Shown one piece after another: positions 16,749 through 58,240 of a DNA stretch of 64,000 nucleotides. The notes beneath the pieces are model-generated. The model was not told the DNA's origin. It did no database searches and worked only from the letters and a program-made list of their open reading frames with translations. This DNA comes from Escherichia coli (GTDB lineage Bacteria; Pseudomonadota; Gammaproteobacteria; Enterobacterales; Enterobacteriaceae), in NCBI RefSeq assembly GCF_024298765.1, contig NZ_CP101210.1, one strand, 5' to 3'. Positions within the stretch are counted from its first letter, which is position 1. Each line of letters opens with the position of its first letter. The position numbers and the translations under genes were made by a program.

Positions 16749-16850
16749 TGCCGGATGCGGCGTGAACGCTTTACCCGACCTACAAAATCTTGCAAAATCA
16801 ATAAATTGCAGGAACGATGTAGGCCTGATAAGCGTAGCGCATCAGGCAAC
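16749..16850. repeat. REP-type palindromic repeats
   Basis: gccggatgcggcgtgaacgc...taggcctgataagcgtagcgcatcaggc, the GCCGGATGCGGCG / GCCTGATAAGCG family seen elsewhere in the window. Confidence 0.6.
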
Positions 16851-22487: not shown

Positions 22488-23969
22488 TTATAATAACCAT
22501 TCCACGGGCAATATCGACGCCAGTCTGACCATAACCCGCTTCCAGAAACTGGTGGCGGGTTCTTTTTTGAGAATAATCTCTTTCTTTGCATGACGATCAA
22601 CCCAGTTGATCCGTCCCCACCTGTCCAGACGGAGCTGCCAGGCCGCATCATACTGGCTCTGAATAAAGCGTTTATCAATTAACTGTGCCAACGTTTCGCT
22701 CTCTATCACGAAGCCCATTTCAGTATTGAGCAATGTCGAACGTGGATCGAAATTGAAAGAGCCGATAAACACCGTTTTACCATCGATGCTAAAGGTTTTA
22801 GCATGCAAGCTGGCACCGGAATTACCGGTTATACCGCGATCGTGTAACGTACTACTTTGTTCACGCGTCGGCTTGAGTTCATATAATTCCACGCCATAGC
22901 GGAGCAATTTTTTGCGCCAGCGCGCGTATCCGGCATGGACGACAGCAACATCGTTAGCGGCAAGAGAATTGGTTAGGATCGCAATCTTTACCCCTTTTCT
23001 CACCATCCGTAAGAGTTGCGCCACACCTGCGCGTGTCGGTACAAAATAGGAAGAGATAATATCGATGCGTTCACTGGGTGAGCCCATGATATCGAACAGG
23101 CGCTGCGGTAACAGTGAATGCCGTTTTGCCTTGCCTTCCCCTTTCGCCGGATCATCACTTAATAAACGTGTTTTCGCCCAGATAAGCGGCAACGTTCCAT
23201 CAACCAGATGATTTATAAACGGGCTGGATTCCATTTTGCGTAAATAACGATGCGTCATGGCATCGTTGTGCCAGGATGCTGGTAACTCGATGCGATCCGC
23301 CATTTCACCTTCCGGGACATCCAGCACCTGCTGTAGGGGTGAAACCGATTTGCAATACCAGTAGCGGGCGAAATCATCGGCAACGTCCTCTACAACTGGT
23401 CCTATTGCCATGACATCTAAATCCGAAAAAAGTGGCTCTTCCCCTGCACCAAAATAGGCATCACCAATATTTCGCCCCCCTACCAGGGTAACCACGCCAT
23501 CGACAGTGAAACTTTTATTGTGCATACGGCGATTGAGACGGGAAAAGTCGGTGATATAACCAAGCGGACGCAGCAAGCGAAACGAGAAAGGATTAAAAAG
23601 CCGGACTTCAATGCGGGGATGACTGTCAAGCAAGCGTAAAATGTCGTCAAGTCCGGGCGTATTGTTGTCATCCAGCAACAAACGGACGCGAACGCCACGC
23701 TTTGCTGCGGCTAACAGGGCGGAAAAGAGTAACCGACCCGACATATCGTCCTGCCAGATGTAATACTGAACATCCAGCGTATGCTCTGCCATTTCGGCCA
23801 GACGGTACCGGGCGGCAAACGCATCCAGACTTTTCTCCAGAGGAAAAAGGCCACACTGACCGGGATGTTGCGAACACAGTGGCAGCACCGCGCTCGCCAG
23901 CCGGGGCAAATCATTCATCTCCTTGTTGAGTAAGGAGTCTTTCGTAGAGGTGGGCGTTTTCTTCATCAT
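22488..23969 (-). CDS. clsC: Cardiolipin synthase C (phospholipase D family)
   Basis: ORF 22488..23978 (-) starts on TTG; contains [13 protein letters not shown]... and PLD-type HxK motifs ([16 protein letters not shown]). True start uncertain (ATG at 23969, 23966 or 23918). Confidence 0.85.
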
Positions 23970-24444
23970 AACAGACAAAGTATACCTGTTCGGGTAAAGC
24001 GTGACGGGTAATAAATTCTGAAACGGTTTTTACTGCGATTTCAGCCGCTGCCGCACGAGGGTAACCATAAACCCCAGTACTGATTGCAGGAAAAGCCACT
24101 GACGTATAGCTGTTTGCCGCCACCAGTCGTAGGCTATTGAGATAGGCATCCTGCAAAAGCTGGTCTTCGTTTTGTTCACCACCACGCCAGACTGGCCCGA
24201 CGGTGTGCACTACGGCTTTAGCAGGAAGATCGCCTGCAAGCGTAATAACGGCATGCCCCGTAGGGCAATCGCCCTGCTGCTGCCTGACTTTTAAACAGGC
24301 ATCCAACAGGGCCGGACCCGCTGCGCGATGAATGGCCCCATCGACGCCGCCGCCTCCCATTAATGACGGATTAGCCGCATTCACAATCACATCAACGGCC
24401 AGTTTGGTAATATCACCCTGCACAACATGAATACGCGTTTTCAT
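23911..24444 (-). CDS. ymdB: O-acetyl-ADP-ribose deacetylase (macro domain)
   Basis: 177 aa [43 protein letters not shown]..., a macro domain signature. Confidence 0.93.
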
Positions 24445-57894: not shown

Positions 57895-58240
57895 GCCTGA
57901 TGCGACGCTTAACGCGTCTTATCAGGCCCACAAAAAGCACTGTTCCCGTAGGCCGGATAAGGCGTTCATGCCGCATCCGGCAACTGCGCCATAATGCCTG
58001 ATGCGACGCTTAACGCATCTTATCAGGCCCACAAAAAGCACTGTTCCCGTAGGCCGGATAAGGCGTTCTCGCCGCATCCGGCAACTGCGCCATAATGCCT
58101 GATGCGACGCTTAACGCATCTTATCAGGCCCACAAAAAGCACTGTTCCCGTAGGCCGGATAAGGCGTTCTCGCCGCATCCGGCAACTGCGCACTAATGCC
58201 TGATGCGACGCCTGCCGCGTCTTATCAGGCCTACAAACGG
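57895..58240. repeat. Tandem BIME/REP cluster (about 3.4 units of ~100 bp)
   Basis: tgcctgatgcgacgcttaacgc(g/a)tcttatcaggcccacaaaaagcactgttcccgtaggccggataaggcgtt...gccgcatccggcaactgcgccataa repeated head to tail from 57895, 57995, 58096 and 58197. Confidence 0.85.

Follow-up and report, generated by a model that had tools for sequence, protein, structure and literature searches.

Comparative evidence on the start of clsC at the ymdB-clsC junction of Escherichia coli

The ymdB-clsC junction and its candidate start codons

The stretch of Escherichia coli DNA analysed here, referred to as the window, comprises 64,000 nucleotides and carries ymdB and clsC as neighboring genes on the minus strand. 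The ymdB gene (23911..24444, minus strand) encodes a macrodomain O-acetyl-ADP-ribose deacetylase of 177 amino acids and ends with a TGA stop codon at 23913-23911, as indicated by the list of open reading frames, Pfam, and RefSeq. YmdB matches the Pfam family Macro over residues 21-137 (E=1.5e-45) and is 100% identical to K-12 YmdB. ClsC matches Pfam PLDc_2 in two stretches (E=1.7e-40) and contains the PLDc active-site motif, which indicates two PLD/HKD domains on one polypeptide. NCBIfam holds no curated HMM specific for ClsC; RefSeq names the product of the identical DNA cardiolipin synthase ClsC, and the protein encoded in the window is identical to K-12 ClsC over the shared 473 amino acids. 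K-12 ClsC is known from the literature to form cardiolipin from PE and PG, and this function is presumably shared by the ClsC of the window on account of the identity. Genes, gene order, and DNA (98-100% identity) correspond to the ymdB-clsC (ymdAB-clsC) operon of K-12, which is induced in stationary phase or at high osmolarity, and the junction shows 98-100% identity to 5423 of 5426 complete E. coli genomes.

Read on the minus strand, the mechanical open reading frame of clsC extends over 22488..23978 and encodes 496 amino acids. It opens with a TTG codon (23976..23978, minus strand), which is the earliest possible start, and overlaps ymdB by 68 nt, as had been correctly given in a first-pass annotation of this DNA. 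The ATG codons at 23969, 23966, and 23918, which were named there as further candidates, all lie in frame. The clsC frame is +1 relative to ymdB and passes through the junction as TTG(23978) TCT GTT ATG(23969) ATG(23966) AAG AAA ... AAC AAG GAG ATG(23918) AAT GAT TTG(23909) CCC CGG. The first two ATG codons form a pair at 23964..23969 (23969-23967 and 23966-23964, minus strand), which is made by the ymdB codons TAT-GAT-G and sits within the last 20 codons of ymdB. Initiation at ATG 23969 gives the long form of ClsC favored here (22488..23969, minus strand), with 493 amino acids and a 59-nt overlap, and initiation at ATG 23966 gives 492 amino acids and an overlap of 56 nt. The third ATG (23916..23918, minus strand) follows from the ymdB codons GAT-GAA and would give a 476-aa form that overlaps ymdB by 8 nt including the stop codon (ATGAATGA); like TTG 23978, it is disfavored. 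A second TTG codon, at 23907..23909 on the minus strand and 1 nt past the TGA of ymdB, had been omitted from the first-pass list. It opens the curated MG1655 form (22488..23909, minus strand) with 473 amino acids and without overlap, and it may be a second, lineage-specific start.

The abundance of in-frame starts at this site is largely a by-product of the ymdB codons. Since synonymous resampling of ymdB gives a probability of ~0.9 for at least one ATG, conservation of an ATG is uninformative by itself. In the sequence comparison, weight is carried only by the invariance of the TAT codon of Tyr159 and by the constraint surrounding it, not by the presence of an ATG.

Existing annotations disagree on the start of clsC. 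In the curated MG1655 record (NC_000913.3), clsC extends over 1106355..1107776 and encodes 473 amino acids, with the end of ymdB at 1106353. In all other E. coli records inspected, the automatic NCBI pipeline PGAP places the start at the equivalent of ATG 23969 (493 amino acids), and it does likewise for E. fergusonii, for Salmonella, and for the majority of the other genera. None of the annotations inspected uses TTG 23978. A conclusive experimental mapping of the clsC start was not found in published work. The ambiguity of the start is real, ordinary, and largely known, as it is visible in the conflicting annotations and in the supplement of a published start-site study (see below). The first-pass view that sequence alone does not settle the start holds for a single sequence, but the junctions of orthologs fairly consistently favor 23969/23966.

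With respect to Shine-Dalgarno (SD) sequences, the candidates differ clearly. A purine-rich anti-SD match located 5-10 nt upstream, as required for SD-led initiation, is found for TTG 23909 and not for the ATG pair, at which the best anti-SD duplex has an energy of -3.8 kcal/mol and lies 13 and 16 nt upstream of 23969 and 23966, respectively. TTG 23909 is preceded by the SD-like hexamer AAGGAG (23919..23924, minus strand), which is formed by the ymdB codons CAA-GGA-GAT. With a duplex energy of -8.5 kcal/mol and a gap of 8-9 nt, it is the strongest and the only well-spaced SD among the candidates. The same hexamer (-7.3 kcal/mol) directly adjoins ATG 23918 with zero spacing, and TTG 23978 has a weak AACAGGUA match 4 nt upstream. 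Duplex energies and spacings bear out the first-pass claim that the three ATG codons lack a well-spaced SD; TTG 23978 has no usable SD either. The hexamer is part of a hairpin, CUCCUU-N7-AAGGAG (23919..23937, minus strand; CUCCUU at 23937-23932), which pairs the SD with a minimum free energy of -6.2 kcal/mol. This hairpin makes up 54% of the ensemble and is not exceptional when compared with shuffled sequences (z=-0.3); it was also recovered in a scan of the sequence. It could make TTG 23909 dependent on the translation of ymdB.

Ortholog junctions

For comparison, the junctions of ~30 enterobacterial ymdB-clsC loci were collected, with each species represented by a single genome; loci from Salmonella, E. 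fergusonii, Cronobacter, Yokenella, Atlantibacter, C. braakii, and C. amalonaticus were added to this set. Distant ClsC proteins align from residues 1-4 of the 473-aa form onward, and protein alignment alone is therefore not decisive. The junctions themselves are more informative. In Salmonella enterica, Lelliottia, Leclercia, Superficieibacter, and Enterobacter sp. ENT03, no ATG, GTG, or TTG codon is present from the ATG pair to the conserved TRLxRA motif. The clsC genes of these five taxa are intact and 70-80% identical to clsC of E. coli. Because another canonical start is lacking, clsC must begin in these organisms either at the pair within ymdB or at a non-canonical codon. This ortholog comparison, which had been proposed in the first-pass annotation as a way to decide between its candidates, favors the ATG pair and disfavors 23978 and 23918, with 23909 remaining as a second start that some lineages may use.

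The codon at the position of TTG 23909 is TTG in E. fergusonii, C. sedlakii, and C. amalonaticus, ATG in the C. freundii group, and AAA in Salmonella. A start codon is absent from this position in Salmonella and in at least eight other genera. TTG 23909 is intact in every sequence examined from E. coli, E. fergusonii, C. sedlakii, and C. amalonaticus, the latter having GAGGAG 4 nt upstream of the TTG. In E. albertii, the TTG is replaced by TTA and the AAGGAG by AAGGCG, and clsC is otherwise intact. Within E. coli, 4385 of 5423 genomes share the same sequence over 40 nt, and the variants sampled differ downstream of TTG 23909; variation at the TTG and its SD within this species is uninformative for the choice of the start.

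The overlap is gone in Phytobacter and Yokenella, where a gap of 100-130 nt separates ymdB from clsC. The 5' end of clsC in these genera is a decayed copy of the 3' end of ymdB with a length of roughly 40 nt and with stop codons in the old ymdB frame, which reads ...QIYLSCYDNKNARR...* in Phytobacter and GQI*LYCHDNNNL* in Yokenella. Both relics have an ATG at the position homologous to 23969, followed by 21 open codons into TRL. Such a pattern is to be expected after the separation of an overlapping gene pair whose overlap was part of each gene. The position of TTG 23978 is occupied by TGA in the Phytobacter relic and by TAT in that of Yokenella, and the ATG three codons downstream is kept in both. 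The stop codon in Phytobacter argues against this TTG as a start.

Stop codons that close the clsC frame within the overlap are found only in two Citrobacter species, caused by a frameshift in C. werkmanii and by CTA-ACA, which gives TAA, in C. braakii. These closures arose independently, and both species carry an ATG at the position of TTG 23909, which is the only usable start left to them. Among the junctions compared, no species without an ATG at this position has a stop codon in the overlap. If the ATG pair was the earlier start, clsC initiation in the C. freundii group has most likely been switched fully to the position of TTG 23909.

A YmdB-ClsC fusion or a programmed frameshift was also considered and rejected, as the fused open reading frames of 651-653 amino acids found in the protein database arise by frameshifts far within ymdB, which garble the C-terminal portion of the macrodomain. 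These fused frames stem from Logan run assemblies and are read as errors or pseudogenes.

Selection on synonymous sites of ymdB

Third codon positions of ymdB coincide with second positions in the clsC frame, and selection on clsC within the overlap should be visible at synonymous sites of ymdB. When synonymous codons were resampled in 23 species with each YmdB protein kept, an open clsC frame across the overlap was expected for 8.1 species, compared to 22 of 23 observed. The probability of an open frame per species was mostly ~0.2-0.3 and reached 0.7-0.9 in four species with shorter YmdB tails. This effect depends on one codon, Leu171 before Thr (CTT in the window, 23932..23934, minus strand), where CTA, CTG, TTA, or TTG would create a stop codon in the clsC frame. 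Of 25 overlap species, 24 have T or C as the third base of this codon; in the remaining one, Cronobacter, CTG is followed by GGA and no stop codon arises. CTA, leading to TAA, is found only in C. braakii. The neighboring Leu170 is free, with TTA, CTC, CTA, and CTG all in use, and the true ymdB of Yokenella, which has no overlap with clsC, has TTA before the Thr codon. The comparison thus indicates selection on the second frame of a long (over 50 nt) out-of-frame overlap.

Synonymous diversity was determined from a codon alignment of 25 overlap species as normalized third-position entropy in 10-codon windows with a permutation test. The lowest value in ymdB is found for codons 153-162 (0.506 vs. 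a mean of 0.750), which rank first of 167 windows with p=0.0006, a value that is optimistic because the ~25 species are phylogenetically related. This block (23959..23988, minus strand) extends from -19 to +11 around ATG 23969 and is retained in the relics of Phytobacter and Yokenella. The synonymous constraint around ATG 23969 exceeds chance. We infer from it that the block at 23959-23988 would be the SD-less translation initiation region of clsC.

Several single codons contribute to this block. Tyr155 is encoded by TAC in 22 of 22 cases and Glu162 by GAA in 25 of 25; C. amalonaticus, which lies outside the 25-species set, has GAG at Glu162 and breaks this rule. At position 159, TAT is used in all 17 species with Tyr and TTT in 7 of the 8 species with Phe, so that the third base is T in 24 of 25 species; other Tyr columns toggle. 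Asp160, which makes ATG 23966, toggles as well (GAT in 13 and GAC in 12 species). Among the Phe species, which have a TTG at 23969, Asp160 is encoded by GAT in 6 of the 7 in which the usual frame relation is retained. Val/Ile154 has one of the rare codons GTA and ATA in 19 of 25 species. In the rest of the overlap (codons 163-177), diversity is normal (0.74), and the 20-residue tail itself is therefore without visible constraint. This includes the Gly175 codon, which contributes to the SD in E. coli and varies across genera (GGA 7, GGC 6, GGT 5).

The constraint could instead serve another purpose, for example a promoter, an RNase site, or a structure of the RNA. A hairpin between CUUUGUC and GAUGAAG at the ATG pair was examined as its cause in 24 sequences and is unsupported: despite 87% pairing, there were no compensatory changes, the structure was no better than in shuffled sequences, and the consensus energy was only -2.1 kcal/mol. 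Regarding a promoter, the motif TATACT located 9 nt before ATG 23969 might be the -10 element of a promoter within ymdB whose clsC transcript is leaderless or nearly so, and this would account for the missing SD. The third positions that create this motif are those of codons 154 and 155, which are conserved even though rare codons are required at position 154, and the motif is retained in the Phytobacter relic and changed to TATAAT in the Yokenella relic. However, consensus scans of the window and of both relic loci called no sigma-70-like promoter near the ATG pair, no good -35 element or TGn motif is recognizable by eye, and 9 nt is long for transcription starting at the A of the ATG. This reading is regarded as very improbable.

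Start-site experiments, rival starts, and the proposed initiation region

Published start-site experiments touch on several of the candidates. In the tetracycline-arrest ribosome profiling (TetRP) study (Nakahigashi 2016, PMC4909307), "ymdC ATG -57" is given as an alternative start, which corresponds to position 23966 of the window. As adjacent ATG codons are not separated by this method, the signal may belong to either member of the pair (PMC4909307). The reads amounted to 0/30.1/16.1 at -57 vs. 0/0/5.7 at the annotated TTG (PMC4909307). These reads are the data that speak for initiation within the long (over 50 nt) overlap in E. coli itself, but the authors flagged ymdC as "not conclusive (5' ORF)", one of only two unresolved cases (PMC4909307). 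The reason for this flag is the location of the site within the strongly translated upstream gene ymdB. In the cell-free INRI-seq approach (PMC9825163), the tabulated fragment from -30 to +120 contains AAGGAG, ATG 23918, and the TTG, and does not include the ATG pair. The INRI-seq table gives zero signal at the TTG in five replicates and lists no peak at -9, i.e., at ATG 23918 (PMC9825163). It also tabulates the Ribo-RET data of Meydan, in which there is no peak at the annotated TTG (PMC9825163). However, ~40% of the annotated starts examined in this table are also free of signal (PMC9825163), and the negative result of INRI-seq at the TTG is therefore weak. The TRAINSPOTTER N-terminomics supplements contain no entry for ClsC.

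The curated annotation would be right if clsC of E. coli was translated only from TTG 23909 by means of the AAGGAG sequence and coupled to the termination of ymdB translation. The CUCCUU/AAGGAG hairpin would sequester the SD until it is opened by ribosomes translating ymdB, which would also explain the zero signal of the isolated INRI-seq fragment. The quality of the SD, the intactness of the TTG in all sampled E. coli sequences, the ATG at this position in the C. freundii group, the GAGGAG of C. amalonaticus, and the dependence of C. werkmanii and C. braakii on the same position are in agreement with this reading. On the other hand, TTG and SD are lost in E. albertii with an otherwise intact clsC, Salmonella and at least eight other genera do without a start codon at this position, the Gly codon within the SD is not conserved, the hairpin is no stabler than shuffled sequence, and the TetRP reads are below those at -57. 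Exclusive use of TTG 23909 also leaves the upstream synonymous constraint and the avoidance of stop codons unexplained. We regard it as doubtful that this TTG is the only start, which is a different matter from its use as an additional one.

The remaining two candidates are weaker still. A start at ATG 23918 would allow termination-reinitiation at the ATGAATGA overlap with the ymdB stop, only 8 nt from the end of ymdB, and after the loss of TTG and SD in E. albertii, no other ATG remains nearby. It is seen in Escherichia only among the junctions compared, and the lack of spacing to AAGGAG and of an INRI-seq peak also speaks against it, so that its use is very improbable. TTG 23978, which is implied as the start by the first-pass annotation and is the first start codon of the open frame, arises from the ymdB codons TTT-GT and is present in 22 of 25 species with its weak AACAGGUA match. 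Its loss in both relics alongside a kept ATG, its absence from all annotations, and the extension of the synonymous constraint further upstream make it the least probable start of all.

Thus, the conserved, ancestral enterobacterial start of clsC is, on comparative grounds, most likely the SD-less ATG pair within ymdB, i.e., 23969 or possibly 23966 in the window. That this pair is a genuine and probably the principal start in E. coli as well is given a probability of roughly 0.55. The missing SD and the fact that ribosomes translating ymdB would cross the site stand against the pair. It also counts against the pair that TTG 23909 has the only good SD and that two Citrobacter species, going by their sequences, can use only that position.

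According to the proposed mechanism, initiation at 23969/23966 would not be led by an SD and would depend on a short conserved A/U-rich stretch, GTATACTTTGTCTGYTATGAYGANGAAA, which would be held constant via the synonymous sites of ymdB. Ribosomes would be recruited to the SD-less ATG by the A/U-rich context with AAG-AAA downstream or, more speculatively, by a short leader starting from TATACT. The 20 extra N-terminal residues would otherwise be free to vary, with an open frame as their only clear requirement. TTG 23909 would be a later feature common to Escherichia and some Citrobacter species, which may yield an additional, shorter product of 473 amino acids by re-initiation after termination of ymdB translation.

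This arrangement differs from known systems in several respects. The curated operon record of K-12 has the start at TTG 23909 without overlap, in contrast to the pair 56-59 nt inside ymdB that is favored by the evidence presented here. Short stop/start couplers such as ATGA and TGATG resemble TGA-T-TTG in E. coli, TGA-T-ATG in most Citrobacter species, and ATGA in C. werkmanii. A coupled junction (<=4 nt) fits only if TTG 23909 is used, with its 1-nt spacer, and not for 23969/23966. The conserved clsC start, in contrast, has no SD and is so far upstream of the ymdB stop that re-initiation after termination cannot easily reach it. Among the genes whose starts were re-mapped by initiation arrest (TetRP, Ribo-RET, INRI-seq), ymdC was given an upstream candidate ATG by TetRP. 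A homologous PLD-type enzyme is ClsO, a lipoprotein ClsC-like cardiolipin synthase of Acinetobacter (PNAS 2026, PMC12846801). Its N-terminal signal peptide with a lipobox is shared by the non-enterobacterial ClsC homologs found here (~50% identity), whereas enterobacterial ClsC is without a signal peptide and has as its N-terminus a short variable tail that lies within, or is derived from, the 3' end of ymdB.

The start of clsC determines which ClsC protein is cloned, tagged, modeled, and quantified. The curated reference start conflicts with the automatic call and the comparative evidence sides with the latter; otherwise, this is a routine refinement of annotation. It has further implications for the relation between the two genes. 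Reviews state that full activity of ClsC needs the neighboring ymdB, and a review from 2021 reports that clones with the adjacent ymdB give more ClsC "by an unknown mechanism" and poses this mechanism as a question. According to the title of a paper from 2024 (Sawasato & Bogdanov), the ymdB product is not required for the substrate specificity of ClsC; this paper may already address the requirement for ymdB in cis. We tentatively suggest that the curated 473-aa ClsC of K-12 is N-terminally truncated and that clsC has its native initiation region and initial 20 codons inside ymdB, so that constructs starting at the TTG lack them, although the case for this is somewhat less than even. A requirement for ymdB in cis would then follow naturally. 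If this is true, ymdB DNA in cis, and not the YmdB protein, raises the output of ClsC, and YmdB need not be a cofactor.

Conserved and variable positions in the ymdB 3' region

At window position 23929, within the overlap of ymdB and the long, 493-residue form of ClsC, the minus strand carries a T, in contrast to the C found in K-12. The ymdB Thr172 codon is thereby ACT in this strain, whereas it is ACC in K-12 and in most of the other E. coli examined. The change leaves YmdB unaffected, and in the 493-residue ClsC it substitutes Leu for Pro14, which is kept in 16 of the 17 species with Thr at ymdB position 172.

Further upstream, two ymdB codons, 146 and 144, were found to be unusually conserved at their third positions (window 24007 and 24013, minus strand) among 25 species, with C at Thr146 in 24 and T at Phe/Tyr144 in 23 of them. 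These sites lie 23-29 nt upstream of TATACT, the conserved motif considered as a possible -10 element, and the CCGTCA at the expected -35 position is a poor match to a -35 element. The Rfam search of the window gave matches to a PyrC leader (3299-3348), ES036 (16784-16826), ES056 (26923-27014), tRNA-Ser(GGA) followed by RtT (32614-32882), Ysr251 (35719-35912), and three tandem copies of naRNA4 (57951-58231), none of which is near the ymdB/clsC junction.

Separated and apparently fused arrangements of ymdB and clsC

In Yokenella (locus L088, 1072-1200) and Phytobacter (locus L021, 1317-1430), where the genes no longer overlap, they are separated by spacers of 100-130 nt bearing no relation to ymdB sequence. 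In the spacer of Yokenella, a T-rich run comes after the inverted repeat CGCCTGA...TCAGGCG, an arrangement for which a simple terminator scan returned no call.

ORFs of 651-653 residues joining the YmdB N-terminus to ClsC occur in Logan run assemblies (P0001, P0002, P0010, and P0011). Each arises from a frameshift deep in ymdB, which leaves the macrodomain scrambled in its C-terminal portion, and these ORFs are probably assembly errors or pseudogenes rather than genuine fusions. In the E. coli examples, Leu is read at the ymdB Val codon GTA, and the usual clsC-frame stop at this site is absent.

N-termini of ClsC homologues in other families

Many Erwiniaceae orthologues (loci L026-L040 from Pantoea, Erwinia, Mixta, and Izhakiella) start 13-16 residues before the TRL of the conserved TRLxRA motif, with a conserved N-terminus of their own, M[AT]EA[FL], which has no relation to the tail derived from ymdB in Enterobacteriaceae ClsC. 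In Mixta, this N-terminus is preceded by the Shine-Dalgarno sequence AAAGGA, and ymdB ends 83 nt upstream.

Outside the enterobacteria, many homologues with about 50% identity (loci L044-L084 with listed N-termini, from Cupriavidus, Alcaligenaceae, Halomonas, and others) carry an N-terminal extension of about 45 residues, in which ALPSLEGR comes after a lipoprotein lipobox (LxGC). They correspond to the ClsO type, whose lipobox N-terminus has been described (PNAS 2026, PMC12846801). Enterobacterial ClsC appears to be derived from this type, having lost its signal peptide and become attached to ymdB.
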